DNA of 40,961 bases, taken from the NCBI GenBank assembly GCA_038062615.1, contig JBBTWV010000066.1, positions 1-40,961 of the forward strand, given 5' to 3'. Numbering within the stretch: position 1 is the stretch's first letter; every line of letters begins with the position of its first letter. The notes below the pieces were generated by a model. That model made no database searches. It was not told the DNA's origin and was given only the letters and a program-made list of their open reading frames with translations. Both the position numbers and the translations under genes were made by a program. This document shows, in pieces, positions 7,323-40,881 of the stretch. This DNA is from Patescibacteria group bacterium (GTDB lineage Bacteria > Patescibacteriota > Gracilibacteria > UBA1369 > UM-FILTER-53-11).

Positions 7323-9032
7323 ATGAAAACAAAAAATCAAAAGCAAATAGCACTCGTGGTGCTCTTTATTCTTTTACTTCTTGGATTTTCGAGCGTTTTT
7401 GCTTCAACGACTATATCCACCGACATTAGCATGGGAGGATCTTTAGTTGTTGGCGGCAATGCCAGTATTACCGGCAACAGTACTGTAACTGGTAACAGCA
7501 CCACCACAGGCAATACGACTGCATCAGGCAATATAGCCATTGCGGGAAACAGCACGATTGGTGACACATCCGATGACACTGTCCAAATAAACGGATCGCT
7601 TGTTGGAAACATTTCCCATAAAGCCACCGCATCCATCACCCCGACACTCAAAGGAAGCGTTACCATAGCCGGCGGTACATCGTTTGGCAGCCTCTATATT
7701 GAAGGCAAGTATGCCTATGTCGGAACCACCAACGGACTTTTTGTGGTGGACATTGCCAATCCGGTTGCGCCAGTTGTTATAAGCCAATCCCTCCTCAACA
7801 GTGTTGCTAGCACAACAGCTTCAATGCATAAGGTCGGCAAATATGCCTATATAACAAAAGCAGGAACATTCTTTACACTTGATGTCTCAAATCCTTACTC
7901 ACTAGCGAACTCTTCGATCCCAGCAGTGTCCATAGCCACAAGTTCAAAAAGTATTTCGATTAGTGGCACCTATGCCTACGTTGCCGCCTCAACGAATGGA
8001 TTAAAAGTCGTTGATATCAGCGCACCAGCCACTCCCGTTCTCGCGGCAACCGTCGGTTCCCCTATCACGGACAGCTCGGGATCGGCAAATGGAATTTATG
8101 TCATCGGAAAGTATGCTTACGTCGCAAACACAACAAACGGATTGCGGGTTGTGGACATTTCAAACCCTATCTCTCCTTCCGTGGTTGGGACATATTCCGG
8201 GGGAAGTCTTTCGGCGGATGATGTTTTCACGGTCGGAAAATATGCGTATGTCATTGGAGGCGACGGCCCTCTGCGAGTCATTGATGTTTCCAATCCGGCA
8301 TCGCCCACGCTCACCGCAACCTATACCCCTACCTTGAGCGGTGTTAGCCCGGAACAATCGTTACGAAACAAAATCGTGGTTGAAGGTAATTATGCCTATA
8401 TCTCATATAACACCAGTACCGATGCGCGCATGGAAATTATTGATATTACCAATCCGGCCGCACCTACATTTGTGAATAGTTTCTCCATATCCGGCGGTGG
8501 ATTTGAAACGGTGGTTTCCGGAAAATATGCCTACATAACGGATGCAACAGCAGGCCAGCTTAAAATCGTTGAGCTCGCGGGATTGACGGTACCGACACTC
8601 TCGGCGGGTGCCGTGGAAACCACCAGCATTATGGTGGATGGAGATGCCATCGTGACCAATACGCTGAATGTGGGAACCTCCTTGAATGTGGGTAACGGCG
8701 GAATGCATGTACAGGGTGTGCTGGCCTCAAGCGGGCGGAAGCAGTCATATACGGCGACGACATCGGCAACCTACACCGCAACTTTTGAAGATGACGTCAT
8801 TGCCGCCAACGCGACTTCTGCTCCCATTACCGTCAACCTGCCTTCTGCATCAAAAAAATCCGGCACCGTTTTTACCGTTATAAAAACAGACGTCAGTGCT
8901 AATGCGGTAACCATTGATCCCAGCGGATCGGAAACCATCAATGGCACCTCAACCATCGCTCTTGCGAATCAATACGACTATAGAACAGTAACTTCTGACG
9001 GTACAAACTGGATAACCATTGGACAGCCGTAA
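7323..9032 (+). CDS. Secreted LVIVD-repeat (beta-propeller) protein with fibre-like stalks and phage-tail-fibre-like C-terminal module
   Basis: Signal peptide; 'GN.T.T' hexapeptide repeats; about 7 'G.YAYV....GL.VVDIS.P..P' LVIVD repeats; C-terminal 'ITVNLP.AS...G....VIKTD.SANAVTI.PSG.ETING...V.SDGTNW'. Confidence 0.8.
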   Translation: MKTKNQKQIALVVLFILLLLGFSSVFASTTISTDISMGGSLVVGGNASITGNSTVTGNSTTTGNTTASGNIAIAGNSTIGDTSDDTVQINGSLVGNISHKATASITPTLKGSVTIAGGTSFGSLYIEGKYAYVGTTNGLFVVDIANPVAPVVISQSLLNSVASTTASMHKVGKYAYITKAGTFFTLDVSNPYSLANSSIPAVSIATSSKSISISGTYAYVAASTNGLKVVDISAPATPVLAATVGSPITDSSGSANGIYVIGKYAYVANTTNGLRVVDISNPISPSVVGTYSGGSLSADDVFTVGKYAYVIGGDGPLRVIDVSNPASPTLTATYTPTLSGVSPEQSLRNKIVVEGNYAYISYNTSTDARMEIIDITNPAAPTFVNSFSISGGGFETVVSGKYAYITDATAGQLKIVELAGLTVPTLSAGAVETTSIMVDGDAIVTNTLNVGTSLNVGNGGMHVQGVLASSGRKQSYTATTSATYTATFEDDVIAANATSAPITVNLPSASKKSGTVFTVIKTDVSANAVTIDPSGSETINGTSTIALANQYDYRTVTSDGTNWITIGQP

Positions 9033-11683: not shown

Positions 11684-14600
11684 TTATTTCTTCACACTCT
11701 TTTGAGGCTTCTTTTGATCTTTGAGATATTTGGCGACCGCTTTTTGAGTGGCTTTACCATAAACGCCATTGACGCTGAACTTCTTAGGAAGGTAACCCTG
11801 AGCTTTAAGCACTTGCTGAAGCTCTTTTACCTGTTTGCCCTTTGAGCGCACCGTCAATTTTTTGAGCAGCACATCGAGCCGAGAAACTTTGGCACCGAGT
11901 ACAACTCCAGGGATTACATTGTTCACGCTGTTTATACTTCGTCCTGAATCACCACCACCCACAGAAGGGGCAACAAAAGTAATAATCTGACCTGTATCTG
12001 CAGCGGCTCTATTTACCACTACAGAATACGTCGTTGTAGCGCCATTCTCTGCGGTTACCAAAAAGGATAATGGATTGGCACCGACAGAAAGATTCAAGTC
12101 TAAGGCTACTCCCGGTTGTACTACAAATTCACCCATCGTAATTCGCGCGAGCGGATCGCTGGCTGTGAAAGTGAGAGCGAATCTATCCACGGCATTATTA
12201 ACGTCCAACGTGTATGCCGCAATATTAGGAGCAAACGCCGGGCTCAAATCGCCGCTCGTGTTTTCCGTAAGAGAAGCAAGCGTAGAAACCGAATTCAGCA
12301 CTCTAGGAGCTGCCCTATCCACAATAATTCTCTGGCTTCCAACATAGATTTCATTCAGAGAGAAGGTAAACATAAAATTATTTTCACCAATATCAAGATC
12401 GAATGCGGCTTCGGTTCCTGGCTCAACCATACGGGTTCTTTCACTATTTTCCAGTTGAATAAAGACCGTATCAGCAAGACCTTCCGGCAGAACCGGAACA
12501 AAAGTCACACTGTCCTCATCATTGTTGGCATTAATAAAATTCTTGAATGATGCAGGATCATAAACCGGATCAAAATCCTGGACGAGGTTTTCGCCAAGCT
12601 GCATCATGCGGACGGAAGGCGTTACCGTAATGGTAACCGTACCTTCATTAGAATCCTCCGTGCCGTTATTGGCGACAAACGTGAAGGAATCAACTCCCGA
12701 AAAATCATCGTTCGGCCCGTATTCAAATGTTCCGTTAGGATTTATTACAAGGGTTCCTTGAGTTGGCATATTGGTTGCCGACACCAAAACAACATTGCTC
12801 CCATTGGCATCCACAGTAACCGCTTGAGCCAATAAGCCGCCTTGCACCACGCTAAACTGTGCATCCTGCGCCACAGAAACAGGCTGTGAGCGAGTCACTG
12901 ACACTGAATATACATCCTCGCTCAGCTGAGTATTATCTGCCGACATAGGGACCAAAATAAATTGGTTATCACCAACCTCCAATGGTGCCGAAGTAAATTC
13001 ACTCAGAGCCATAGAAGTTCTTTCGGAAGTTGCCAGCTGAATAAGATCATAATGATCCACCGCGAGATTATCGGAAGAGAGCCTGAATTGTGCAAAGGCA
13101 TCGCCATTCTTAGCCGAAACATTGTAATTAAAGAGTTCTTGATCAAAGTTCGTAAGAAGGTTGTTCTCAGAACTATCAACCATTACTTCAATTCCACCTA
13201 CGAGAGGTGCATTGCTGACGTCTTTATGGATTTCTAGAGGATACCGTCCCAAATAACTGCCCTGGGCGTCCCTAAGCTCAACATTAAAATAATTATTGGC
13301 GGCGGGAACAGGAACCTGGATGGGTGATCCCGGCGTACCCGCAACAGCGGAGCCCTCAGACGAGCGAACAACAATGCTCGTTACCCCTTGGTCATCAGTT
13401 TCAGCAATGACATTCACGCTCGTAGTTTCGTAGGGAATATCATTCAAAATGGCCATCATTCCGTTAAATGGAAACGCCAATTCAAAGCCTGGAGCGCGAA
13501 GATCCGAAAGCTGCGCCTGAGCTCTATCTACAAAGAAGAATAAACTATTGAGAGGCTCATTATCCTGTGAAAAAAGAGTAAAGGTAAAACCATTACCGCC
13601 AACATCCAGCGGGAAAGTTATGGCAGAGGTCGGCTCTATGGTCGTTACTTCTTCTTCATTTTTCTGGACCTGGATGGAGGCAATGAGTGGACTTTGGGCA
13701 TCTACACGGAAGGTTATCTCCGTCTCGGTATAGGCCGCCACAATGCCATTAAAATCGAGGTTCAGCGGTAGCTCAAAATCTTCGGCAAGATTTTCATCCA
13801 TATCAATCATGGGTATGAGCTGGACGTTAATCGTCACCGTGGCCGGCGCAGAATCTTGGGTTCCGTCGTTAACAACAAAAGTGAAAGAGTCCTGGAACTC
13901 AGCAACGTCTTCAAATGAACGGTAAGAGAACATTCCATCCTCTTCATCAAAAACAAAAAATCCATTCTGAGGCTCATCCACGACGCGGAAGCTCAAAAGA
14001 GCATCTTCAGCATCGGTACCAATCACCTGCCCATCAAGATCACGGCCAGAAAATACCGAAAATTCTTCTGACACCGCCACTGGTGGCGCGTTTACTTCTG
14101 GCTGAGGAATTTGAACCGTAAAGGTGTTATTGATTTCATCCAGCTCGGCAACTTCATTAGAAGAGTCGGTCATAATTTCCATGGCAAACGCACCTTCCGG
14201 AATATCAAAAAATGCAAGCACGTCTCTTTGTTCACCTGCCATCAAGCCAGCTATGACTCCTCCAGCCCCCGCCGTTCCGATATTTTCTGCGTTGGCATTA
14301 TAGTAATTGATCTGTGAAAAAAAATTAACGGTAATATTGTCGGTTCCGGTATTTTGGACCGTAAACGTCATGCTGCCAAAATCAAAATTGGGATCGGCTG
14401 AGGTAATAATAAGGTCTTGATTCGTAGGAAGCGGCTCAGCAGCGTCAACATTCAAAGTATTGTTAGTTTCATCAGTTTCAGAAATTTCATTTGGAGCATC
14501 GGCAACAACTTCAATAGTTACGGTACCTTCGGGAAGATCCAAAAAAACAGGCTGCTCAAGTTGGGCTCCTGCTGCAATTCCACCAAATAAGGTAAAGTCA

Positions 14601-15190
14601 GAGCTTCCAAGAAGCTCCCCGTTTTCTGCTAAAAAGTTCAATTCGTTATTCACATTCACCGTGATGTCATCAGTTCCATCATTGCGAAACATCACATCAA
14701 TTCTTCCTGCAGAAAAAACAAAATTTGCTGAGGGAAGTGTAAGGTCAATATCAGAAGGAGGTGGGACAGGAATCATGAGATCCATGACATTATTCGTCTC
14801 GTCCTCTTCCTCCTCCAAAGCAGGATTAAGAAACACACGAATAAAATCTGTTCCCTCAGGAAGCGCAGGAGCTTGCAATGGCAGTGAATACATTTCCCCA
14901 GGCAAAAGATCATCGGCGATATTAAATCCCGACATTCCTAATTGAGTTGGATTGTCTGGATCCGTATTATCCATGTACAAAAAATCCAAGAAAAAAGTCT
15001 GAGTTATTTCTTCGGTACCTATATTTTTTATGCTGACATCAAGAATCCCATCAATAAAAGTGGCTGACTCTATGCGCAAATCGATGGGGTCTCCCTCGAC
15101 GGCCAAAACTGGCTTAAGAGAGGGGAAAAACACCGATACGAGAAAAACCGACAGTGTTACTGTAGAAAGGAACTTTCTAAAAGTACCCAT
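11684..15190 (-). CDS. Large acidic surface protein: 3x CARDB, Ig/cadherin-like repeats, C-terminal peptidoglycan-binding domain
   Basis: Likely start ATG 15190 followed by a signal peptide. Three 'DL.I...N.G...E.DE.NN' CARDB repeats; two 'PVA...F.Y...DSFTFV.N.GT.DS...TVTI.V' Ig repeats; cadherin-like 'LSPAF.P...AYT...VTAENG.TTTY'; C-terminal 'G.QVKELQ..L...GYL.....NG.YG.AT..AV'. Confidence 0.8.
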   Translation of the reverse strand: MGTFRKFLSTVTLSVFLVSVFFPSLKPVLAVEGDPIDLRIESATFIDGILDVSIKNIGTEEITQTFFLDFLYMDNTDPDNPTQLGMSGFNIADDLLPGEMYSLPLQAPALPEGTDFIRVFLNPALEEEEDETNNVMDLMIPVPPPSDIDLTLPSANFVFSAGRIDVMFRNDGTDDITVNVNNELNFLAENGELLGSSDFTLFGGIAAGAQLEQPVFLDLPEGTVTIEVVADAPNEISETDETNNTLNVDAAEPLPTNQDLIITSADPNFDFGSMTFTVQNTGTDNITVNFFSQINYYNANAENIGTAGAGGVIAGLMAGEQRDVLAFFDIPEGAFAMEIMTDSSNEVAELDEINNTFTVQIPQPEVNAPPVAVSEEFSVFSGRDLDGQVIGTDAEDALLSFRVVDEPQNGFFVFDEEDGMFSYRSFEDVAEFQDSFTFVVNDGTQDSAPATVTINVQLIPMIDMDENLAEDFELPLNLDFNGIVAAYTETEITFRVDAQSPLIASIQVQKNEEEVTTIEPTSAITFPLDVGGNGFTFTLFSQDNEPLNSLFFFVDRAQAQLSDLRAPGFELAFPFNGMMAILNDIPYETTSVNVIAETDDQGVTSIVVRSSEGSAVAGTPGSPIQVPVPAANNYFNVELRDAQGSYLGRYPLEIHKDVSNAPLVGGIEVMVDSSENNLLTNFDQELFNYNVSAKNGDAFAQFRLSSDNLAVDHYDLIQLATSERTSMALSEFTSAPLEVGDNQFILVPMSADNTQLSEDVYSVSVTRSQPVSVAQDAQFSVVQGGLLAQAVTVDANGSNVVLVSATNMPTQGTLVINPNGTFEYGPNDDFSGVDSFTFVANNGTEDSNEGTVTITVTPSVRMMQLGENLVQDFDPVYDPASFKNFINANNDEDSVTFVPVLPEGLADTVFIQLENSERTRMVEPGTEAAFDLDIGENNFMFTFSLNEIYVGSQRIIVDRAAPRVLNSVSTLASLTENTSGDLSPAFAPNIAAYTLDVNNAVDRFALTFTASDPLARITMGEFVVQPGVALDLNLSVGANPLSFLVTAENGATTTYSVVVNRAAADTGQIITFVAPSVGGGDSGRSINSVNNVIPGVVLGAKVSRLDVLLKKLTVRSKGKQVKELQQVLKAQGYLPKKFSVNGVYGKATQKAVAKYLKDQKKPQKSVKK

Positions 15191-15313
15191 ATTGAAAAGG
15201 GGATAAGGGATATTGGTACCTTTTATAGCAATAACACCGCTAAATGTCAAGTCTTTACCTGTAAGGCATTTATATACAAGCACTAGTTAAACCAAAAACA
15301 GTCAATAATTGAC

Positions 15314-27109: not shown

Positions 27110-29251
27110 ATGATCGGAAAAATATTTTTACAATTTGATGAAGGCAAGCCGGCAAGGTTGGTGTGGAATGGAGAGACACCAGAAGCACACGCAGCGCCAA
27201 GAGCCGCACCTGAACCTCGCCGTGCGCCAGATGCTAATGCAGGAGAAAGAGCAAAGAGAAAAGGCGAAAGAAAACTCGACCGTGTAGCTAATGCTGCCGG
27301 CGATGCCAAGGGACCAGAAGTTGAAACAACGGAAGTTACTCTTGAAAAAGCCAATAGTGTACAGCAAAAATATGCAGCAAAAATTAATGAGTATTCTACC
27401 GAACTCATCAAAAAACCAAATGAATATGCCGGACTTCGCAAAAAACTTATTGAATCCATTCCAACTGATAATAATGAACGCGCCGCAGTGGAAGCTTTAC
27501 TGAATGGTCTTATAAAAATACCGGTGCATCCTGCTGAAGGTGAAAATCCAAAAACGCTAGAACTTGCCAGAAAACTCCTTAAGGGCGAAGAAATGCCTGC
27601 CCATGAAGCACTCGCTGCTGCTGCCGGTGTTGCTGTCTCGCTCACAGAAGCCCAATACGAAACTTTGGCTAATGAAAATATCATTGATAAAACAAAAATT
27701 AAAACTGTTGCTGATCTTTCTAAAATTATTCTTGAAGCATATACGGCTAAAAATCTCCCCGTGATGATTGCGGGAGCCCAACTGGTAGAAACCGGAAAGC
27801 TCTTTGAAAGATACAAAGACGGTTATAAAAAATATATTGAGAATCCAACCGACGAAGCCAAAAAAACATTTTTGACCTCAATTCAGGATGAGGGAGAGAG
27901 AACAAAAGTCCAAAAAGCTATGGAGGATCCCGCAACGAATGCAGAAAAGCAAGCCGTGCTTTTGTTCACCTTAGATAATAAAAAATTGGCTCCGGGCGAA
28001 ATTGCAAAAAATCTGGCAGAAGGAAAACTCAATATACGTGAAGGAAATATCGCTGGTGAACTTATTACTGATAAAGATATTGCTGAGTTTGAAAAGTCAG
28101 ATCCTCCAAGAATTACCCCTGAAGAAGCCAAAGATTGGAGAGATAAGTTGCAGCAAGTAGCCAAGGACGCCGCACCTTCTAACCTTCCAGAGAAAAAAGA
28201 CTGGATGCAACAGACTTTTGAAACTATTAAAAAGTTTTTTGAGAAAATCAGTGCGCTTCTTGCTAAGGCTCTCAGCGGAGTTTCCAATATCACGGAAGGT
28301 CCTAAGTTTGATAAGTCTCCGCTAGGTGATGGTAAAGGCAAGTTCAAAACCGGAGAGTATACAAAAGGCCAGCCCTTAATAATTGAAGCCAATGAAGACG
28401 CGCCAGTTTCTGCCGTACACGATGGAAAAGTGGTTGATAAAGGAGACGATTTCGTCGTTATTCAAGAAGGAGAAAAAGGTCCAAAAATTAGATACAGCAA
28501 CCTCATCCCTGATATCGCAGTGGTAAAAGATGCGCCAATAAAAGCCGAAGCAGTTATTGGGACTATAAAAGACGGCAACGGCCTTGGATTCCAATCCTTT
28601 GATGCGAGTGGAGAAGAACAAGATCCTACCTCTCTATTAAGAGACTTCATTGAAAAACCTGCACCCGTAACTCCACCTGCGGCACCGGCAGGAGCACCAG
28701 CAGCCGCACCAACCGCAGAACCGGTTGCGCCAGCAGGAGTTGCAGTAGCACCCGGTGCAATAGGTGCTGGGAAAGAAGCCGAATTAAGAGCCCTAGATGG
28801 CACACCGCTTGCAACACAACCTGTTGATGCCGCCGCCGAAGCAGAAACCGCACGAAAAGCACTCAATTCTCAAATGATCACCAATGCCAACGAAGCCTTT
28901 AATCATGGTTACAATCCCAATACTCCTGGTAATCCCACGCTTATACTTGAAGCAGTACCATTCATTGATGGAGATAAAATAACCAATATAAAAATGGAGA
29001 TCTCAAAGAACCAAATCGCCATTGGAGGGAAAAAATACAATATGACTCTCCCCAGCGGGACTGAGCTTCAAGGCATTATTCCGGCCAATGAAGAAAATCC
29101 CCAGCCGAGTTTTGTCTTCACCGGCGACAAAAAAATTCCACTCATCGAAATCCTTCCCAGATTTGATGAACTCCGAACAAGTAACGACGATACAGTCCAC
29201 GAATATACCTTCAATTCAGGGATTACACTTACATTTAATAAAACTTCGTAA
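27110..29251 (+). CDS. Large protein with degenerate M23/LytM domain, Ala/Pro linker and unrecognised C-terminal domain
   Basis: 'PVSAVHDGKVV....FVVIQ.....IRYSNL.....IKA..VIGT.....LGF.......QDP' follows the M23 fold pattern but lacks HxxxD and HxH. C-terminal domain is shared with the next ORF. Confidence 0.7.
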   Translation: MIGKIFLQFDEGKPARLVWNGETPEAHAAPRAAPEPRRAPDANAGERAKRKGERKLDRVANAAGDAKGPEVETTEVTLEKANSVQQKYAAKINEYSTELIKKPNEYAGLRKKLIESIPTDNNERAAVEALLNGLIKIPVHPAEGENPKTLELARKLLKGEEMPAHEALAAAAGVAVSLTEAQYETLANENIIDKTKIKTVADLSKIILEAYTAKNLPVMIAGAQLVETGKLFERYKDGYKKYIENPTDEAKKTFLTSIQDEGERTKVQKAMEDPATNAEKQAVLLFTLDNKKLAPGEIAKNLAEGKLNIREGNIAGELITDKDIAEFEKSDPPRITPEEAKDWRDKLQQVAKDAAPSNLPEKKDWMQQTFETIKKFFEKISALLAKALSGVSNITEGPKFDKSPLGDGKGKFKTGEYTKGQPLIIEANEDAPVSAVHDGKVVDKGDDFVVIQEGEKGPKIRYSNLIPDIAVVKDAPIKAEAVIGTIKDGNGLGFQSFDASGEEQDPTSLLRDFIEKPAPVTPPAAPAGAPAAAPTAEPVAPAGVAVAPGAIGAGKEAELRALDGTPLATQPVDAAAEAETARKALNSQMITNANEAFNHGYNPNTPGNPTLILEAVPFIDGDKITNIKMEISKNQIAIGGKKYNMTLPSGTELQGIIPANEENPQPSFVFTGDKKIPLIEILPRFDELRTSNDDTVHEYTFNSGITLTFNKTS

Positions 29252-29260
29252 CTCTTTAGT

Positions 29261-31882
29261 ATGGCAGAGCCAACACCAAATCCAACCTTCGAAGACATTG
29301 ATTTAGAAGCCACAAGCCGGCTCAGCGAGCTTGAACCCGAATCCGAGTTTGATGATCCCGTGGCGCATTTTCATGACGATTTTGTGGAGCAAGTTAAAAA
29401 AGGTTCTTTTGATTTTTCGGGAAGTCATGATGATGCCACAGAACTCGATCAAAACGCATATTACCAACAATTAGACCAAGCATTTGCGCAGTTCCTCACG
29501 GTAAACAACAATCCAGATGTACCCCAAAAATTCAGCAACAAATGGATGCAAGCCGCTGAGGATTTTATGGTGAATGAAATTGCGGCATACGATTGGAAAA
29601 GTGGAGAAATTGGCCAAAAAGAGGTTGATGAAATCATTGTCGCTCTCATAACACCTAACAAAGCGGCACCAAAGTCCGGCAAACCGGGCATTGGGAAATT
29701 AGAAGAATGGATACAAAACCAGCCGGCTTTAAAAAGGGAATATGATAAGTGGAAGAAAGATCATGCCGTTGCATCTGCGGAAGCACAAAAAGGTGATGCG
29801 CGCAGTCGCCTGCAAGAGTTAAGACTGGAAACCGATAATCCCAGCCAACACTACATGGATCAATTTGTTTCACGGGTTAAAACCGGGGCTTTCAACTTTG
29901 GCGGCGAACACAATAACGAAGCAGAACTGGAGCAAAATGTTCATTTTAGTCAGTTAGTGAGCACACTTGAACGATTCCTACAAGTGCACGATAACCCGGA
30001 ATTGCCGACAAATATACGAGGCGCCTGGATGAAGGCTTGCATAGATTTTTTGACAGGAGAAATCACCGCCTATAATACCAATCCACCTCCACCGTCCGTC
30101 AATCCACCGTTCGCCAACCCCGAATACGGTCAGTTTGGAATTGGAAAAAAAGATGTTGATGAAATGAGAAAAGCCTTGATAACGCCAGGCAAACGCGGTC
30201 CCATAACAGGAAAGCCCGGCATTGGAAGGTTGGAAGAATGGATTCATAACCAGCCGGAATGGAAAGGAGAATATGAAAAATGGGAAAAAACCAAAGCGGC
30301 ACAAAAAGCACAGGAAGAAGCCGCCGCTAAAGCCGCCGCCGCCGCCGCCGAAGCCAGCAAGACCGAAGCGCAACGGGCTGAGGATGCAAGACTAGCCGAG
30401 CTCAGGGCTCAGCAAGAAACAGAGCAAGGCAGACAAACAGCCGCGCAAGAAGCGGCGCAAAATCTTGCTACAACAAAAGAGCAACTTGTACAAAGGGATA
30501 CAGAGCTCGATACACAATTTCTAGCTCTTCCACCAACCATAGTTTCCGCCAGCCTAGCGACGAGAATAGCCGCCATGAAAACGGACATTGCCGCCATGAA
30601 TAATGCGGCGCAAGAAGGACCTCTCAAAACAAGAATTGGAAAATTGGAATCTGAAATTTCTGCTTTCGAAAATTTATGGAGCATGTCCGGCGATCCGGAT
30701 ATTCCAACAGCGGCACGCGACAAAGTATTCAAAGCAGTAAAAGATGGAACGCAAACTCCACAAGACGGTTGGGCAGAATTACAAAAGGCCCAAACGGCAA
30801 AACGAGCCGCTGACGAAAGAGCATTAGCCGAAGACGGTCCACCTGCCGACAAATGGATCGCCAGCATTGAGAAGATGAAGCCTGGAGCGTTGAGAACGCT
30901 GGCCACGATGGCTGTATCAGTGGTAGTAAGTCTTTCCAAAGCCCCATTAATTGGCAGTTATTTTCGAAAATTATTCTCCAATAAATATCTTTGGGAAAAA
31001 TATGGCGACGAAGATGCTCACAAATCTTATGACGTGGAACAAGAATTCAGAAAATTTGGAATTAAGAGAAGCGTCTGCGCGGCTCTGGGAGACATGCCAA
31101 CAAAAGATGCCGTGACTGAGTTGGAAACGAATGCTGAAGCCTATGCGCCCAACGATGCGTCCGGCAAAGTAAAACTCGAGTGGTTGGCAACTCAACTTCG
31201 CGCCAAAGGAGGTGACACGAGCGAGGCAACGCTTTATGAATTCATGGGCTCGCCGGACTGGCTGCCTGTAAAATATCGTGCAGACCAGGCACCAGCCGTA
31301 GTTCAAAATGCACCAGCTCCACGACCTACGCCAGCACCGGCACCACCAGGAGCACAACCGCAAGCCGCGCCAGCAGGGACACCGCCGGTTACTATCGTCG
31401 CGGCACCTGCGGCGGCGGCCGCGGCCGCCGGCACCGCCAACGAAGGTGCCAAAGATGCTCAAGCGCCTACCCCTGCAGAATTAGAGACTCAGTATGCAGC
31501 AGCCCTTAATAAAAGCCTTGAGCGATATAAAGATAAACCACCTTTTGATCTCACGGCAGGACAATTTCCCTTCGAATTACCTTATAAGAACAATGGAAAA
31601 GTAGAAAAAATTCCCTGCAAAATCTACGGCAATACATTTGAAATCGGCTCCTACAAATATAATCTCAAATTGCCGATGGGAGCTAACCTCCAAAGTATCA
31701 GCATTTCCGGCTCGGTAGAAGACGGCAAAGTAAAACTTGTTGCTGGAGCGCTTATGATTACGGGCGAGCGAGAAATCTCACTAAGTAAACTTGTAGAACA
31801 TTTGGAAGCCTTACGAGTCGGCCCAGCGTCACATCAAATTCCTCTAGGAACTGAGACCGCAACATTTGAAAAGGTCGCTTAG
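29261..31882 (+). CDS. Large protein with two tandem ~150-aa repeats, coiled coil, hydrophobic helix, Ala/Pro linker and shared C-terminal domain
   Basis: 873 aa ORF with an internal duplication ('ALITP.K..P..GKPGIG.LEEWI.NQP..K.EY.KW' occurs twice). Confidence 0.75.
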   Translation: MAEPTPNPTFEDIDLEATSRLSELEPESEFDDPVAHFHDDFVEQVKKGSFDFSGSHDDATELDQNAYYQQLDQAFAQFLTVNNNPDVPQKFSNKWMQAAEDFMVNEIAAYDWKSGEIGQKEVDEIIVALITPNKAAPKSGKPGIGKLEEWIQNQPALKREYDKWKKDHAVASAEAQKGDARSRLQELRLETDNPSQHYMDQFVSRVKTGAFNFGGEHNNEAELEQNVHFSQLVSTLERFLQVHDNPELPTNIRGAWMKACIDFLTGEITAYNTNPPPPSVNPPFANPEYGQFGIGKKDVDEMRKALITPGKRGPITGKPGIGRLEEWIHNQPEWKGEYEKWEKTKAAQKAQEEAAAKAAAAAAEASKTEAQRAEDARLAELRAQQETEQGRQTAAQEAAQNLATTKEQLVQRDTELDTQFLALPPTIVSASLATRIAAMKTDIAAMNNAAQEGPLKTRIGKLESEISAFENLWSMSGDPDIPTAARDKVFKAVKDGTQTPQDGWAELQKAQTAKRAADERALAEDGPPADKWIASIEKMKPGALRTLATMAVSVVVSLSKAPLIGSYFRKLFSNKYLWEKYGDEDAHKSYDVEQEFRKFGIKRSVCAALGDMPTKDAVTELETNAEAYAPNDASGKVKLEWLATQLRAKGGDTSEATLYEFMGSPDWLPVKYRADQAPAVVQNAPAPRPTPAPAPPGAQPQAAPAGTPPVTIVAAPAAAAAAAGTANEGAKDAQAPTPAELETQYAAALNKSLERYKDKPPFDLTAGQFPFELPYKNNGKVEKIPCKIYGNTFEIGSYKYNLKLPMGANLQSISISGSVEDGKVKLVAGALMITGEREISLSKLVEHLEALRVGPASHQIPLGTETATFEKVA

Positions 31883-31918: not shown

Positions 31919-32452
31919 ATGGCTGATAACACCAACCAAAATCCGGCAACAGGAAACCAGGGTGGAACCATTGATCTTCGCCAACTGCCACCGACGCAAG
32001 CCGGTGCTGCGGCAGGAGGAAGTTCAGCCACTCCTCCAGCAAGCGGCGCATCGACAACGAGCGCAGGAGCAACCGGTGATCAAAGCGTTTTTAATAAATT
32101 TGAAATTCCCGAGACGGTGCGTCAGCAGTTCCCAGAATTGATTCCGCTTGTTCTAGCGACGGAATCGATGAATGACGAAGAACGCCAGTACTGGTTCCAA
32201 ATCTTGCCGATCATGACGCAGGAACAGGTCGCAAAACTGCGAGAAATTCTGGCGAATGAAAAAAAGCAGCTGGAAAAACTGGATAAGGATTATAAAGAAG
32301 ACATCAAAGAGATCAACCAAAAACATGTGGCAGAATGGAAAGAGTTTGAAGCCAAAGAAAAGCGCCAGAAACTCAAAGCGGAAGAAACCAAAGCCGAGTC
32401 CACCGAACAGGAAGAGGAAGAAGCCTTGCTCAAAAATTTACAGAATTTATAG
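31919..32452 (+). CDS. Hypothetical protein, disordered N-terminus plus helical domain (paralogue 3 of 3)
   Basis: 'LVLATESMNDEERQYWFQILPIM..EQV.KLREIL.NE' aligns with the ORFs at 5659 and 20278. Confidence 0.8.
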   Translation: MADNTNQNPATGNQGGTIDLRQLPPTQAGAAAGGSSATPPASGASTTSAGATGDQSVFNKFEIPETVRQQFPELIPLVLATESMNDEERQYWFQILPIMTQEQVAKLREILANEKKQLEKLDKDYKEDIKEINQKHVAEWKEFEAKEKRQKLKAEETKAESTEQEEEEALLKNLQNL

Positions 32453-32615: not shown

Positions 32616-33455
32616 TTAGCCTTTCTCTATCAACTTCGCCGTCACAATCAGCCTTTTTAAGTTTGTCCCAATAGGCGTGCAAGTAATAAGCGTGAGCTGC
32701 TCACTGGCCGTTGGACCAAGCACATTTACGTTTTGCGGCAAAACTACTTTAATATCGGTCACTTGGTAAATATATTTTTTCTGACCAAAGTACATCACTA
32801 TTTTGTCGTCCTTGCGAACATCATGCAAAAGCGCAAAAACATCCTTAAATCTTCCAGGATCCCAAGCGTAGTAGGATGAATGGCCAGTAAGCACAACATT
32901 GCCGTTATCCCCAGGCAAAGCCGTTCCCGGGTAGTGGATCACCCCATTTTGAAGCGACTTTTGAATGTCGGACTCCAACTGTTCCCATTTACGCGCAATG
33001 AGATTTTCATTTTTAACACCCACCACCGGAACATTTTGATTGATGCGCGGAATCACCAAACGCATATCCGGCGGATAAACTTCTAAATTGAGCGGAGGAG
33101 TTGCCGCCGTGGAGGGCTTGCTTCCGACTTTATCTACTGCCACAATTTTTTCCGGCTCCGGCGCTTTTTTGTCTGCGAGCTGGTGCAACGGGCTTTCATA
33201 TCCGCGCCAAACATCCCAATAATGAACCAAATTAATCTCAATCGCCTGCCAATTAATCACCAAATAAATCGCCGCAAATACTGCAACCGATACCAGGACA
33301 AACTGGATTTTGTCCCACACAAAAGACCAAATCCGATGGTTCGGTTTTTTATCTTTCCATCGCAACACCGGTGCCGACGCCACTTTCTCAGCCACATGCG
33401 GTATGGCATCAATGTGCAAAAGGTAGACTTCTTTTTTTGCGGATTTTTTCTTCAT
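32616..33455 (-). CDS. Sortase family protein
   Basis: N-terminal TM; 'L.IPRI', 'GVIHYPGT..PG..GNVVLTGHSS', catalytic 'LTLITC.P.GT..KRLIV' (His/Cys/Arg). Confidence 0.93.
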   Translation of the reverse strand: MKKKSAKKEVYLLHIDAIPHVAEKVASAPVLRWKDKKPNHRIWSFVWDKIQFVLVSVAVFAAIYLVINWQAIEINLVHYWDVWRGYESPLHQLADKKAPEPEKIVAVDKVGSKPSTAATPPLNLEVYPPDMRLVIPRINQNVPVVGVKNENLIARKWEQLESDIQKSLQNGVIHYPGTALPGDNGNVVLTGHSSYYAWDPGRFKDVFALLHDVRKDDKIVMYFGQKKYIYQVTDIKVVLPQNVNVLGPTASEQLTLITCTPIGTNLKRLIVTAKLIEKG

Positions 33456-34742: not shown

Positions 34743-34770
34743 CTTGATTCATAATTCATGATTATTGATT
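34743..34770 (+). repeat. Heptamer tandem repeat (CWTRATT-like) at rel start
   Basis: CTTGATT CATAATT CATGATT ATTGATT. Confidence 0.55.
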
Positions 34771-37118
34771 CATCAATTGACGCCTTCTCCAACGAACTCC
34801 TGGAAAAAATCCACGGCTACTCGTCCGAAATTGATCTAAGCCGCATCAAATCCGCTTACGAGTTTGCCAAAAAAGCCCATCAAGGCCAGCTGCGCCAGTC
34901 CGGTGAGCCGTACCTCATGCACCCCATGCGCACCGTGCAAATTCTCACCAACTTTCGCGTAGATGAAGACACGCTTGCCGCCGCGTTTTTGCATGACGTT
35001 CCCGAAGATACCGACATTCCCATTTCAGAAATTGAACGCCTTTTTGGTTCAAAAATCGCTTACTTGGTAGATGGCATTACGAAACTATCAAAAGTTCACT
35101 ACCGCGAACGCATGGAACAGCGCCAGATTGAATCACTCAAAAAACTTTTTATTCACAGTGCGCAAGATCTTCGAGTCATTCTCATCAAACTGGCCGACCG
35201 GCTGGATAACATGCGCACGCTTAATTTTATTGCGGGTGAAAATAAACGCCATCGAATTGCACGCGAAACGCTTGAAATTTATGTGCCTATTGCCAATCTC
35301 CTTGGTATTGGTGAAATACGCACCGAGCTTGAAGATCTCTGTTTTGAGCACCTTTTCCCCATGGATTTTGCACACCTCAAGCGCGAGGTGGAAGAAAATC
35401 TGGAAGAACGTGATTTCATTCTTAAAGAAATGATCCACCTCACCGAAAAGGAGCTTCAAAAACGCAATCTGGAAGCCGAAATCATCGGCCGGCCAAAAAC
35501 CCTCTACAGCATTTATCGCAAACTCCAAACCAAGCAAACGCTAAATAATATTGATGATCTCCTCGCCATTCGCGTCATGGTCCCCACACGCAGCGACTGT
35601 TACAACATGCTGGGAATTGTGCATCAACTTTTTAAACCAAAAATCGGACGCATGAAGGATTACATTGCCGTGCCAAAACCTAACGGGTACCAAAGCCTCC
35701 ATACTACCGTTTTTGGTCTCAGCGGAAGCATTGCGGAATTCCAAATACGAACGCGATATATGCATCTTGAAGCCGAATACGGTATTGCCGCACATTATTT
35801 TTACAAATATTCCGACGAACAAGAACTGGCCAACATCATGCAGCAAAAATCCAGCTGGGTTCAGCGTATTTTAGAAATGCAAAAAGATAATAATGACCAA
35901 GGAAATTTTATTGAGAATTTGAAGTTGGATGTTTTTCAGGATCGCATTTTTGTCTTCTCTCCCAAGGGTGATGTCATTGATTTACCGCGCGGCGCTTGCA
36001 CCCTGGATTTTGCCTATGCCATTCATACGGACGTGGGAAACCATGCAGTAAAAGCCGAAATCAATGGCGTTATGTTCCCCGTGAATACCACGCTGGTGAG
36101 CGGAGATACGGTCCGCATCATAAGCAGCAAAGACTCCCACCCGGAGCGCGAGTGGCTTAATTGTGTAAAAACAAGCGTGGCGGCGCATCGCATTAAAGAA
36201 TACCTCCGCAATGAGCCTATGGAAAAAAAGCTGGCTCTTGGCCGCAAATTTCTCCAAAAAGAATTCGACCGAATCGGCAAAGACTTTCAGCACGTGCTCA
36301 CCTCTAAACGCATCAAAATTATTGCCGAAAAGCTCCCATATCACCGGCTGGATCACATTCTTGTGGCGATTGGCGAAGGCCAGCTTCAGCCCCAAAGTAT
36401 TTTGGAAATTCTTTTTGAAACCAAAGAACTTTTTGCCGGGCCGGATGAGCATTTGACCAATCAGCGGGACCACGGAAGAAACCCGCTTTTCCGTTCCCGT
36501 GCAGGACTTCGCATTCTTGGGAGTAACCATCAGAATCAATTCCGTGAAATCATGCGCACCATGAACTCTTTGCACATTCCCATTGTAAAATTCATTGTGG
36601 ATAAGCCGTGGTACTTGAATCATGACAGGTGCCAACTTTCGGTGATGGTGAAAAATTACAACGAACTGGCCCAAGTTTTTGAGAGCCTTGAGCAGATCGA
36701 AGGAGTCCAGCAAATTTCTCGGCTTTTTTATCATCGCAAAGCGTGGTTCATTTTCTGGAGTATATTTACCAGCGTGATGTGGTTGATTCATCCTTTCATT
36801 GTGGATTGGATGCTCACCAATGCTCAACATGCCGGCGCAATCACGAATTTGAGCATCTACGCGGGGCTCGTAAGTCTCATTGGCCTCAGTCTTTACCTCA
36901 AAAAAACGGCGCGTCGGAGTTTTCCCGAGTTAGCCGAAATACGCCATTTTTGGCCTTTTCTTTATGGACTTACTACCCTCGCTTTATTTGTATTTATTGG
37001 TGAGATTCTCACGTTCAAACTCCAATTTAATTGGATGTTCGTTCTCTTTCTCATCGTTGGAATCTATGCTCTCCTCACCGCGAGCTACCTGAGCTATAGA
37101 AAAGAACAGTTTAAATAG
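34758..37118 (+). CDS. rel: Long RelA/SpoT homologue (bifunctional Rel) with C-terminal transmembrane domain
   Basis: HD hydrolase 'R.SGEPY..HP', 'FLHDVPEDT', 'IKLADRLDNMRTL'; synthetase 'GRPK..YSIY.K', 'KDYIA.PKPNGYQSLHT', 'EFQIRT..MH..AE.G.AAH'; TGS 'LDFAYAIHT.VG'; about four hydrophobic helices from residue 663. Confidence 0.93.
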   Translation: MIIDSSIDAFSNELLEKIHGYSSEIDLSRIKSAYEFAKKAHQGQLRQSGEPYLMHPMRTVQILTNFRVDEDTLAAAFLHDVPEDTDIPISEIERLFGSKIAYLVDGITKLSKVHYRERMEQRQIESLKKLFIHSAQDLRVILIKLADRLDNMRTLNFIAGENKRHRIARETLEIYVPIANLLGIGEIRTELEDLCFEHLFPMDFAHLKREVEENLEERDFILKEMIHLTEKELQKRNLEAEIIGRPKTLYSIYRKLQTKQTLNNIDDLLAIRVMVPTRSDCYNMLGIVHQLFKPKIGRMKDYIAVPKPNGYQSLHTTVFGLSGSIAEFQIRTRYMHLEAEYGIAAHYFYKYSDEQELANIMQQKSSWVQRILEMQKDNNDQGNFIENLKLDVFQDRIFVFSPKGDVIDLPRGACTLDFAYAIHTDVGNHAVKAEINGVMFPVNTTLVSGDTVRIISSKDSHPEREWLNCVKTSVAAHRIKEYLRNEPMEKKLALGRKFLQKEFDRIGKDFQHVLTSKRIKIIAEKLPYHRLDHILVAIGEGQLQPQSILEILFETKELFAGPDEHLTNQRDHGRNPLFRSRAGLRILGSNHQNQFREIMRTMNSLHIPIVKFIVDKPWYLNHDRCQLSVMVKNYNELAQVFESLEQIEGVQQISRLFYHRKAWFIFWSIFTSVMWLIHPFIVDWMLTNAQHAGAITNLSIYAGLVSLIGLSLYLKKTARRSFPELAEIRHFWPFLYGLTTLALFVFIGEILTFKLQFNWMFVLFLIVGIYALLTASYLSYRKEQFK

Positions 37119-37231: not shown

Positions 37232-37912
37232 CTAATCTAAAAAAAATTCCAGACACTCGCGTAGCGAAATCTTCCCTTCAAACAACGCACGAGAGACCAT
37301 GACGCCGGCCACACCGGTGTTTTTAAAAACTTCTAAGTCAGACATACTTCCCACCCCACCAAAAGCATAAATCTTACTTGATGTAGCCAGCACCAAGCGG
37401 TCCGCTTCATCAAAATTAGGATGAAACGTGCCTTCGGTATTTTTGTCATGAAAAATAATTTCTTCAAACCCTTTTTCTGCCAAATCCTTGCCATAATCCA
37501 CCACCTCAATATTCGGCTTTCCTTCAACAAAATTTCGCTTTGCTAAAATCGTAAAACAAATTTTTTGCGATCCAAATTCTTGCAAAGCGTCTGCTGCCAG
37601 GGCTTCATTTTCTTGTGTCAACGAAACTTTAAAAATCCCCTGTTCCAGCAAGTCCCGAATCAAAGAGATTTCAGCCAGCCGCCCAGCGTATGAAATTTGC
37701 AACGCCGTATGGCGTGCTATCTGCTGAGCCATTTTTTGGCCGCGGTCCTCCGTATTCAGATCAACGAGATGCAAAAATTGCGCTCCCTGCTTCTCAAACT
37801 GCCGGGCACAAGCTAAAGGATCACGGCTCAGAATCGTCGTCTGATCGCGCTCGCCTTTGTAGTGAGAAACCACCTCGCCGCCCAGTAAATACAAAGCAGG
37901 AATAATGACCAT
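37232..37912 (-). CDS. HisA/HisF-family TIM-barrel protein, degenerate active site
   Basis: Likely start ATG 37912. Motifs 'IIPA..L.GG.VV...KG', 'GA..LHLVDL', 'IIF.D...EGT', 'GGVGS..DL', 'GV.V.RAL.EG'. Both catalytic Asp positions appear substituted. Confidence 0.8.
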   Translation of the reverse strand: MVIIPALYLLGGEVVSHYKGERDQTTILSRDPLACARQFEKQGAQFLHLVDLNTEDRGQKMAQQIARHTALQISYAGRLAEISLIRDLLEQGIFKVSLTQENEALAADALQEFGSQKICFTILAKRNFVEGKPNIEVVDYGKDLAEKGFEEIIFHDKNTEGTFHPNFDEADRLVLATSSKIYAFGGVGSMSDLEVFKNTGVAGVMVSRALFEGKISLRECLEFFLD

Positions 37913-37919
37913 AGAGCCA

Positions 37920-39014
37920 CTAAACATTAAACCTAAAATGCACCACGTCGCCGTTTTTCATAACATATTCCTTTCCTTCCACTCGCATTTTTCCTTTTTC
38001 CCTAGCACCTTGTTCTCCTCCGCAAGAAACATAATCATCAAAACTGATCACTTCCGCGGCAATAAATCCTTTTTCAAAATCCGTATGAATCACCCCTGCT
38101 GCTTGCGGAGCCGTGGCTCCCTGCACCGTGGTCCAAGCGCGAACTTCTTTTGGTCCGGCGGTAAAAAATGTGAGATACCCAAGCGTGTGGTAAGCCGCAT
38201 GAATAAGCGCATAAAGCCCTGGCTCCTTAAGTCCTAAATCATCCAAAAAAGCCTTGGCTTCTTCATCCGAAAGTTGCGCTAACTCTTCTTCAATCTTGGC
38301 CGAAATGGGAATCACATGCTCCGCATTTTTAATGCCGAGCTGCGGAGCCAACGCCATTTTATCTACTTTTTTAATTTCATCCTCATGCACATTCGCAATG
38401 TACAAAAATGGCTTGTTGGTAAGCAGATGCAAATCTTTTAAAGAATCCTTTTCTTCTGCCGTTACCGCAAAATCAAACGCTTTTTTACCGGAAGCCAAAT
38501 GATCCCTCAATTTTGCCAGCAGTATGGCATACGCCGCTGCTTTTTGATTTCCCGATTTGGTCTCCGCTTTGGCTTTGTCTAAGCGCTTTCCCAGCGTATC
38601 TAAATCCGCCAAGATGAGTTCGGCTTCAATAATTTCAATGTCGCGCTTGGGCAGAACATCACCATGCACGTGAATCACATTGGGATCGTTAAACACACGC
38701 ACTACCTCCGCAATGGCGTTACATTCACGGATATTCGCCAAAAATTTATTGCCGAGCCCCTCGCCCTTGCTGGCGCCTTTTACCAAACCCGCAATATCCA
38801 CAAACTCCACCGTAGCTGGCAATACTTTTGCAGGATTCACCATTTGCGCGAGCTTTTTGAGCCGCTCATCGGGTACCTCAACAATGCCTACGTTGGGGTC
38901 AATCGTACAAAAAGGATAGTTGGCCACATTGGCCTTGCGCGTGCGCGTAAGGGCGTTAAACAGAGTTGATTTGCCAACATTCGGAAGTCCTACAATGCCA
39001 ATTTGAAGCGCCAT
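37920..39014 (-). CDS. ychF: Ribosome-binding ATPase YchF
   Basis: 'GIVGLPNVGKSTLFNALT', 'NYPFCTIDPN', 'DIAGLVKGASKGEGLGNKFL', 'APQAAGVIHTDFEKGFI.AEV', 'FRFNV'. Confidence 0.98.
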   Translation of the reverse strand: MALQIGIVGLPNVGKSTLFNALTRTRKANVANYPFCTIDPNVGIVEVPDERLKKLAQMVNPAKVLPATVEFVDIAGLVKGASKGEGLGNKFLANIRECNAIAEVVRVFNDPNVIHVHGDVLPKRDIEIIEAELILADLDTLGKRLDKAKAETKSGNQKAAAYAILLAKLRDHLASGKKAFDFAVTAEEKDSLKDLHLLTNKPFLYIANVHEDEIKKVDKMALAPQLGIKNAEHVIPISAKIEEELAQLSDEEAKAFLDDLGLKEPGLYALIHAAYHTLGYLTFFTAGPKEVRAWTTVQGATAPQAAGVIHTDFEKGFIAAEVISFDDYVSCGGEQGAREKGKMRVEGKEYVMKNGDVVHFRFNV

Positions 39015-40191: not shown

Positions 40192-40881
40192 TTAAATGTC
40201 AAGAAAATTGACCATCTCTGCCAAATTCCACTGTCCGGGAGCCGTTTTTTGTGCATCAGAAAGTGCCACATAGGTAAGGTAGGAACCCAAGAGAGGGCAA
40301 CCCATGCGCGAAACCTTCCCCTTTTCACCCATCCCTACTACGATCATTTTTATTTTTTGCGTGGACGCGCGGCGGGTAAGCTCAAAAAGTGTCACGTTAT
40401 CTTCCCAGTGGTTCACGGTAACGGCTATTTTGATGATATCAGCACCCATTTTTTGCGCTTTTTTGACCCATTCAATGAGCTCCAAAAGCGGGAGCATTTT
40501 GCCCCAAAAATGCTGAGAAATAATAATGGAGGCACCCATCTTTTGAGTGACTTTTTTGATCTCCTCTATATAACGAGGATGAGTTTGCATGCCCAAATCA
40601 ACAAACCGAGAACCAGCGATAATGCCTTCTTTAAGCCTTAAAACCCTCTCCTGTTCGGTTCCTTTAAATGAGCCTTTTTCAATGGGACCTCGGCAAACGA
40701 CAATCACTGGCCGCTTCACTCTCCTAATAAAATCTCCAAGCCCTGCCATATCATCCAGCCAAACTTCAAAAAGTAGCTCATGGCCGGCATCTTCTAATTT
40801 TGATGCCTTTTTGAGCCCTTCCTGAGCCGCTTTTATGGCTTTCTTGAGGCTTTTTTGACGGATGGGGATACAAATTCTCAT
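40192..40881 (-). CDS. aroD: Type I 3-dehydroquinate dehydratase
   Basis: 'E..LD', 'I..CR...EKG', 'IISQH', 'ADIIKIA' (Schiff-base Lys), 'MGEKGK.SR', 'APGQ'. Confidence 0.88.
   Translation of the reverse strand: MRICIPIRQKSLKKAIKAAQEGLKKASKLEDAGHELLFEVWLDDMAGLGDFIRRVKRPVIVVCRGPIEKGSFKGTEQERVLRLKEGIIAGSRFVDLGMQTHPRYIEEIKKVTQKMGASIIISQHFWGKMLPLLELIEWVKKAQKMGADIIKIAVTVNHWEDNVTLFELTRRASTQKIKMIVVGMGEKGKVSRMGCPLLGSYLTYVALSDAQKTAPGQWNLAEMVNFLDI

Follow-up and report, generated by a model that had tools for sequence, protein, structure and literature searches.

A zinc-finger-less long RelA/SpoT homologue with a predicted four-helix membrane tail in Candidatus Peregrinibacteria

Long RelA/SpoT enzymes are usually regarded as soluble proteins that are regulated on the ribosome or by partners. 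In this work, we analyse a stretch of 40,961 nucleotides from a Patescibacteria group bacterium (contig JBBTWV010000066.1 of assembly GCA_038062615.1; 'the window' in what follows), which encodes at 34758..37118 on the forward strand a single long RelA/SpoT homologue (RSH) of 786 residues, in one open reading frame (ORF) with zero internal stops, that ends in four predicted transmembrane (TM) helices. We refer to this protein and its relatives as TM-Rel. By combining family profiles, structural models, gene neighbourhoods and phylogeny, we find it very probable that TM-Rel is a real and conserved membrane-tailed RSH, and we propose where its tail came from and what it may do.

Domain layout and predicted membrane tail of TM-Rel

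The gene and its parts, numbered by their positions in the window, are as follows.

34758..37118, forward strand: whole TM-Rel gene, a 786-residue long RSH with a predicted membrane tail; stop codon at 37116-37118; 620 bits against TIGR00691
34854..35309, forward strand: HD (hydrolase) domain, residues 33-184; Pfam HD_4 at E 2e-42; H55, H79, D80, E83, D84, D147 and N151 present
35487..35816, forward strand: SYNTH (RelA_SpoT) domain, residues 244-353; R245, K247, D267, R272, RxKD at 298-301, H315, E327 and Q329 present
35946..36122, forward strand: TGS domain, residues 397-455, E 1.2e-18; His423 corresponds to the His known to stack against the CCA end of tRNA
36180..36485, forward strand: helical (AH) domain, residues 475-576; positions 9-105 of the 185 in the RelA_AH_RIS model are the only ones matched
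36501..36722, forward strand: ACT/RRM domain, residues 582-655, from Pfam ACT_4 and the AlphaFold2 model; its last strand (650-656) nearly abuts TM1
36747..36803, forward strand: predicted TM1, residues 664-682; conserved W675 and H678-P679 (P in 35/38 family members)
36837..36893, forward strand: predicted TM2, residues 694-712, from hydropathy and the model
36894..36953, forward strand: predicted cytoplasmic loop between TM2 and TM3, residues 713-732; rich in K and R, with an RSFPELxE motif (P723 in 35/38, W732 in 36/38)
36954..37016, forward strand: predicted TM3, residues 733-753; membrane-buried Glu749 in 11/11 close tails and 31/38 members overall
37032..37097, forward strand: predicted TM4, residues 759-780; behind it the protein closes with a short, basic stretch on the cytoplasmic side

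TM-Rel belongs to the RelA/SpoT family as defined by NCBIfam, scoring 620.3 bits against TIGR00691 (cut-off 499.2), and stays below the cut-offs of both equivalog models, that of SpoT (NF008303; 508 bits, cut-off 947) and that of RelA (NF008124; 379 bits, cut-off 728). Its AlphaFold2 model, built on an alignment of 38 rows, has a mean pLDDT of 82.2 and is matched by Foldseek to Bacillus subtilis Rel (6YXA, E 2e-36), as well as to SpoT (7QPR) and ribosome-bound RelA (5IQR), and the N-terminal, catalytic half compares with Staphylococcus aureus Rel (7OIW) at a TM-score of 0.95 and 45% identity.

We counted conservation over 38 full-length members of the TM-Rel family in one alignment, which is the basis of all such counts given here. 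The residues that are catalytic in Rel structures are retained in both enzymatic domains: each of the seven hydrolase residues listed above is kept in 34-37 members and the synthetase residues (R245, K247, D267, R272, K300, D301, H315, E327 and Q329) in 32-38. The RxKD motif reads R298-M-K-D301 in TM-Rel, with R298 kept in just 21 members, and the equivalent of TGS His423 is kept in 30. TM-Rel is thus probably a bifunctional (p)ppGpp synthetase/hydrolase. A pairwise alignment finds the same catalytic motifs in the canonical Rel of the same genome (see below), so that the split between the two paralogues appears to be one of regulation and location and not of catalysis.

The C-terminal half departs from this canonical pattern. 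In all 38 members, the stretch from the helical domain to TM1 contains 0-3 Cys and lacks a CC pair, the zinc-finger (ZFD/RIS) half of the Pfam RelA_AH_RIS model has no match in TM-Rel, and residues 557-578, the site where an ordinary Rel has its ZFD, form a low-confidence linker in the AlphaFold2 model. Behind it follows a divergent ACT domain, recognized by ACT_4 at 30 bits (Pfam cut-off 27) and modelled as a beta-alpha-beta-beta-alpha-beta ACT fold at residues 580-656. A preliminary description of this DNA, made from the sequence alone, had read the protein as a full HD-SYNTH-TGS-helical Rel with intact hydrolase and synthetase motifs, a divergent ACT-like region and no Cys-rich zinc finger, and the Pfam domains, TIGR00691, the residue conservation and the modelled fold all bear this out. 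The start that it gave, 36480, lies close to that of the ACT domain, and the hydrophobic part begins at 36747.

Four hydrophobic stretches quoted in that description as C-terminal helices of the same frame are all found in the translation, where hydropathy and the structural model agree on them. A Kyte-Doolittle scan with a 19-residue window exceeds 1.6 solely at residues 664-682, 694-712, 733-753 and 754-780, with a maximum of 0.97 upstream of residue 640, and AlphaFold2 places long helices at 658-688, 692-720, 724-752 and 759-785, straight after the ACT domain (pLDDT 59-89 within the block, mostly 75-89). Together with these two lines of evidence, the TM assignment uses the positive-inside pattern: averaged over the family, the count of K and R is 4.0 ahead of TM1, 3.9 in loop 2-3 and 2.4 at the C-terminal end, against 1.0 in loop 1-2 and 0.5 in loop 3-4. 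This alternation fits a topology with both termini inside and with almost nothing exposed outside, the two outward loops having median lengths of 11 and 6 residues. Besides the positions listed above, an Asn at the TM3-TM4 turn (N758) and two Tyr in TM4 are conserved. So many conserved polar or otherwise special residues (the TM1 Trp and His-Pro, FPEL, W732, E749, N758 and the Tyr pair) point to a constraint that exceeds what an anchor needs.

The tail is hard to place among known families. Across 11 tails, Pfam yielded no usable family match, and a feature search of the ESM Atlas likewise gave no usable match, with a structure search of the same resource returning solely a 116-member Peregrinibacteriota RelA_SpoT cluster. 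The SMR transporter Gdx-Clo (6WK5) ranks second among the Foldseek results for the tail at an E value of 1.1, and a homodimer prediction with two copies of the tail, run without controls, scored 0.00 and counts neither way.

Distribution of the fusion and its soluble relatives

The last 207 residues of TM-Rel are matched in 24 of 40 relatives, each time within a long frame. A profile built from 11 tails detects the fusion in 101 of the 150 further genomes of the order that were searched, from 13 of the 19 families and including complete genomes in a single contig (for example, G011, G065, G069, G084 and G130). The frames that bear it are 770-889 residues long and end in the tail, with four exceptions of 276-575 residues, one of which was inspected and runs off its contig. 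The layout noted in the window is therefore conserved across genomes of the order. Against 1.84 billion representative proteins, the tail profile, which was our sole route to split or larger forms of TM-Rel, returned 60 clusters at E <= 0.001, and the module is C-terminal in all 60. The 18 short matches that were inspected look N-terminally cut and longer ones carry ACT sequence upstream; some short ones begin with a Met inside the tail and could include a free-standing gene. Outside the order, seven of 178 sampled genomes of the same class match the tail, five of them convincingly, and 284 genomes of other classes of the phylum yielded a single convincing match. TM-Rel is a conserved layout in one lineage, Candidatus Peregrinibacteria/Peribacteria, and rare elsewhere.

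In-frame TGA codons occur within some of the tail matches from other orders of the class (G154:C17:5328-5747, one; G190:C12:34086-34496, six; G277:C15:11159-11569, one), and between five and eight library proteins of the TM-Rel family have Trp at several conserved Gly positions. Both observations fit lineages in which TGA is translated as Gly, an alternative code used in parts of the class.

The genome from which the window comes (1.38 Mb, 95.5% complete) encodes a second RSH on another contig, C27, so that the second, canonical rel that the preliminary description had considered is indeed there.

C27:10579-10950 (locus L002:397-2571), strand -: canonical Rel of 724 residues, with a Cys-rich ZFD and an ACT domain and without a hydrophobic tail

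It shares 40% identity with TM-Rel over residues 21-588, where the alignment stops. More than one RSH is the rule in the order: 147 of the 150 other genomes have an RSH match, most of them two or three when judged by eye, compared to 26 of the 38 genomes sampled from other classes of the phylum, of which just one has two. The RSH frames of 815-850 residues in families lacking the tail, considered as candidates for hidden divergent tails, turned out to be canonical proteins with ZFD and ACT. In two genomes of family f2 the RSH synthetase domain lies within an open frame of 1107 residues (G125:C124:8022-8351 and G053:C1:92449-92778), by far the longest RSH frame seen.

A third type of RSH in the order is soluble and lacks the ZFD (643-679 residues; loci L035-L037 and L039-L041, with flanks in L079-L084). 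It ends roughly 10-25 residues past the ACT domain with no TM helix, and its gene adjoins hisA-like and ychF genes, the same position that TM-Rel has in the window. In genomes of family f7 this form and TM-Rel coexist, the latter located elsewhere. None of the loci examined has a separate TM gene behind the soluble form, an arrangement that the preliminary description had set against its own reading. As these proteins stop after ACT with no TM gene behind them, they represent a separate soluble form and are not evidence of read-through in TM-Rel.

We placed these types relative to each other in a quick IQ-TREE phylogeny of the first 620 residues of 67 proteins, from which six loci were dropped as they had no ORF of at least 400 residues with the SYNTH motif. 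A branch with an SH-aLRT support of 99 separates 34 rows, made up of 28 TM forms and six soluble ZFD-less forms, from 33 rows with the canonical Rel of the order and the RSH of other Patescibacteria. Judged from these sequences, the loss of the ZFD is common to the TM forms and the soluble ZFD-less forms. An AU test does not reject the TM forms as one clade (p-AU 0.418), and the tail may have been gained once or lost secondarily.

EamA/DMT neighbours and a possible origin of the tail

Directly downstream of the gene for TM-Rel, seven of the 12 loci examined carry an EamA/DMT gene of 320-342 codons that abuts or overlaps the end of rel.

L015:1739-2728: EamA/DMT gene
L016:2751-3743: EamA/DMT gene, whose start shares the same base with the TM-Rel stop
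L018:3652-4620: EamA/DMT gene
L019:4634-5617: EamA/DMT gene
L020:4624-5583: EamA/DMT gene, whose start shares the same base with the TM-Rel stop
L010:454-1479, minus strand: EamA/DMT gene
L012:456-1451, minus strand: EamA/DMT gene

The gene is not at the TM-Rel locus in the window, L017, L013 and L014, and L011 ends too early to tell. In the window, the hisA-like gene comes just 113 bp after rel.

The tail itself resembles these neighbours. When tails and neighbouring EamA proteins are compared with hhalign, residues 15-100 of the tail align to 6-93 of EamA (probability 90.6, E 1.3e-6) and a second, collinear match joins tail 89-139 to EamA 264-314 (probability 80.2, E 1.4e-5), so that the two together cover the first roughly 90 and the last roughly 50 residues of the transporter. 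None of 60 column shuffles reaches the observed score (maximum 25.0 versus 47.8) and the reversed profile scores 12.9. Among ORFs of the same genome, 89 others with at least four hydrophobic segments score 26.9 or less against the tail. The seven neighbouring EamA proteins score 29.2-43.2 when taken singly, and the genome's own EamA genes, which are different, score 12-16.

From the two collinear profile matches and the genomic adjacency, both of which concern the neighbour subtype of EamA/DMT (PF00892), we consider it fairly likely that the tail is an internally deleted copy of the downstream gene that became fused to rel. Such a tail would keep four of ten helices, and because the loss, from helix 3 or 4 to helix 8 or 9, removes an even number, topology would be kept. 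Three results speak against this origin. The identity in the hhalign comparison is 17%, Pfam EamA (PF00892) matches just one of 11 tails, at an E value of 0.28, and the fold search with the tail is non-specific and does not confirm it. At this level of identity and of Pfam recognition, a DMT origin is suggestive and not proven, and the tail is not to be seen as a functional member of the family. A protein query did not find an EamA of the neighbour type in the window's genome, at its 95.5% completeness, so that a partnership with the transporter cannot hold for the whole family.

Beside TM-Rel in the window lie three genes on the minus strand, a block that is conserved next to rel across families.

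37232-37927, minus strand: His_biosynth-family (HisA/HisF-like) gene, a lone hisA-like gene in this small genome
37920-39014, minus strand: ychF
40192-40881, minus strand: type I dehydroquinase

YchF is said, in the title of one report, to bind ppGpp in a plant. In the relative G001, the hisA-like gene has a run of masked residues (X; L007:3099-3419, minus strand), where bases read as N. The remainder of the window includes a cluster of probable surface proteins and a sortase gene that adjoins mnmA.

1888-4368, forward strand: CARDB protein
7323-9032, forward strand: protein with LVIVD repeats
11684-15283, minus strand: cadherin-like/Big_9 protein of 1198 residues
15314-16723, minus strand: SLH-domain protein
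32616-33455, minus strand: sortase

Three consecutive ORFs without a Pfam match (27110-29251, 29261-31882 and 31919-32452, all on the forward strand; 713, 873 and 177 residues) lie downstream of an M23 peptidase/SLT protein and have a strongly positive AT skew of 0.22-0.29.

Proposed membrane-coupled control and its alternatives

We favour, with moderate confidence, the reading of TM-Rel as a membrane-integral, bifunctional Rel paralogue under membrane-coupled control; that the tail is regulatory, and does more than anchor the enzyme, we put forward tentatively. In this lineage-specific paralogue the ZFD, which sits between the ribosomal subunits, would have been lost and a four-helix module fused directly behind ACT. 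With both termini inside, every catalytic and regulatory domain would lie on the cytoplasmic side, the ACT domain on the inner face of the membrane, where it would be held because its last strand runs into TM1. The two paralogues would then divide the labour: the canonical Rel, presumably dependent on the ribosome, would report amino-acid starvation there, and TM-Rel would toggle between hydrolase and synthetase states upon a signal read in the membrane or at its inner face, possibly independently of the ribosome.

In the studied Rel enzymes, the C-terminal region governs the switch between hydrolase and synthetase, and E. coli RelA without RRM and ZFD is compromised in ribosome binding, as stated in the portions of PMC7797070 that treat these regions. 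With this control region anchored to a conserved helical bundle, changes within the bundle could be relayed to the enzyme and decide between its two states. The signal might travel from TM1 and the conserved cytoplasmic loop through ACT to the remaining C-terminal regulatory region, and candidate inputs to the bundle are protonation of the buried Glu, the state of the lipids or a membrane partner. The preliminary description had suggested that (p)ppGpp turnover may respond to a membrane cue such as host attachment or envelope state, as would suit an epibiont. As the outward loops measure about 11 and 6 residues, however, the module is unlikely to sense an external ligand or contact with a host directly, and any membrane cue would be intramembrane or would come via a partner.

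A number of observations weigh against this proposal. The activity and localisation of TM-Rel are predictions from sequence, and its TM status is supported by hydropathy and a model rather than by a dedicated predictor. The tiny outward loops offer no obvious sensory surface. TM-Rel retains the TGS domain, and 30/38 members keep the His that contacts tRNA, so that an input from uncharged tRNA or the ribosome is possible; for RelA and Rel, PMC7797070 describes this His as stacking against the CCA end of the tRNA. A structure search with the tail returned generic or designed helical bundles (best Z 10.8, below the roughly 13 that is common for helical models), and Foldseek with a tail-only model gave no match at E <= 0.001.

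The main rival is a passive anchor, where the helices merely hold a normal Rel-type enzyme at the membrane, to create a local alarmone pool or to let it act on membrane-bound ribosomes; control would lie with TGS and tRNA or with cytoplasmic partners, and the tail would transmit no signal. The short external loops, the retained TGS His and the absence of a recognizable sensory domain in the tail would all suit it. However, a single helix would suffice for anchoring, the buried Glu, the His-Pro of TM1 and the FPEL loop motif are conserved across families, and all 38 members lack the ZFD, a ribosome-binding aid in the RelA studied in the relevant passages of PMC7797070; we regard it as the less probable explanation, if one to be taken seriously. 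The end of soluble relatives right after ACT at the same genomic position, and the many short library fragments that begin inside the tail, might instead be taken to mean that the fusion is an artefact of read-through, mis-assembly or a chimeric join of rel with a small membrane-protein gene. This is extremely improbable, given that the fusion recurs without a stop in 101 of 150 further genomes spread over 13 families, complete single-contig genomes among them, that the tail is C-terminal in 60 of 60 library matches, with ACT upstream in the longer fragments, and that the soluble forms have no separate TM gene behind them.

A further alternative is a transport-linked module, in which a DMT-derived tail would still cooperate with a DMT transporter, or oligomerize in the manner of SMR proteins, and the enzyme would read metabolite transport or the proton gradient, or even help to move a nucleotide. 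The collinear, two-part similarity to the neighbouring EamA, the abutting or overlapping of rel and EamA in relatives and the conserved buried Glu are in keeping with such a role, but a protein query did not find the EamA subtype in the 95.5%-complete genome, the other EamA genes there show no similarity to the tail (scores 12-16), L017, L013 and L014 lack EamA at the locus, and the removal of six helices makes a transport path unlikely, all of which leaves it quite improbable. A related and rather unlikely idea is that the tail is a cut-down DMT that still reads the occupancy by an imported metabolite or, through its buried Glu, the proton gradient, either alone or docked on a full-length DMT, as a transceptor-like switch for the alarmone. 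If true, ppGpp in a host-dependent, ultra-small bacterium would be tied to membrane traffic, independently of the ribosome.

SpoT, which is controlled off the ribosome by partners, serves us as a working analogy for a non-ribosomal input. In Beta- and Gammaproteobacteria it is likewise a second long RSH beside a ribosome-dependent one (7QPR), and an abstract names ACP and YtfK as its regulators. TM-Rel is not its orthologue (508 bits against the 947 of NF008303): SpoT is soluble and keeps the ZFD. In the window's genome, hydrolase and synthetase motifs are retained in each of the two paralogues. With canonical bifunctional Rel (6YXA, 7OIW) TM-Rel shares the HD-SYNTH-TGS-helical-ACT order, the catalytic residues and RxKD, but it lacks ZFD/RIS, has a C-terminal module of four predicted TM helices and falls in a clade apart from the canonical Rel that these genomes also encode. 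The soluble ZFD-less RSH of the order shares its clade, its loss of the ZFD and its genomic position, and differs in lacking the TM helices.

Further afield, a putative C-terminal transmembrane region (811-827 and 848-864) was once proposed for Arabidopsis RSH1, with evidence of a chloroplast localisation coming later, as far as the relevant part of PMC5633626 relates; unlike TM-Rel, these are two weak segments without a conserved four-helix module and in an unrelated sequence context. Placing the turnover of a second messenger at the membrane has parallels in DacA/CdaA and GdpP, in which TM helices tether cytoplasmic catalytic domains (as described in a section of PMC4342491), although these are other enzyme families with other messengers and N-terminal helices. 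A literature search, with subscription journals outside its coverage, did not turn up any account of a long RSH fused to TM helices, and the word 'transmembrane' has zero occurrences in the main text of two papers on RSH classification, Atkinson 2011 (PMC3153485) and Jimmy 2020 (PMC7229694). Sequences of TM-Rel are already in public databases, and we found no published description of them.

With two or three RSH matches in most sampled genomes of the order, compared to none or one in nearly all other Patescibacteria sampled, alarmone control in Peregrinibacteria seems unusually elaborate, in genomes of 1-1.5 Mb. The TM-Rel family would be an evolutionary example of a swap of regulatory domains, in which a ZFD was lost and a transporter remnant gained. 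Its layout suggests that in this lineage alarmone levels are controlled both on the ribosome and at the membrane, and a membrane-integral subfamily of long RSH without the ribosome-intersubunit domain would give the stringent response a new input route.

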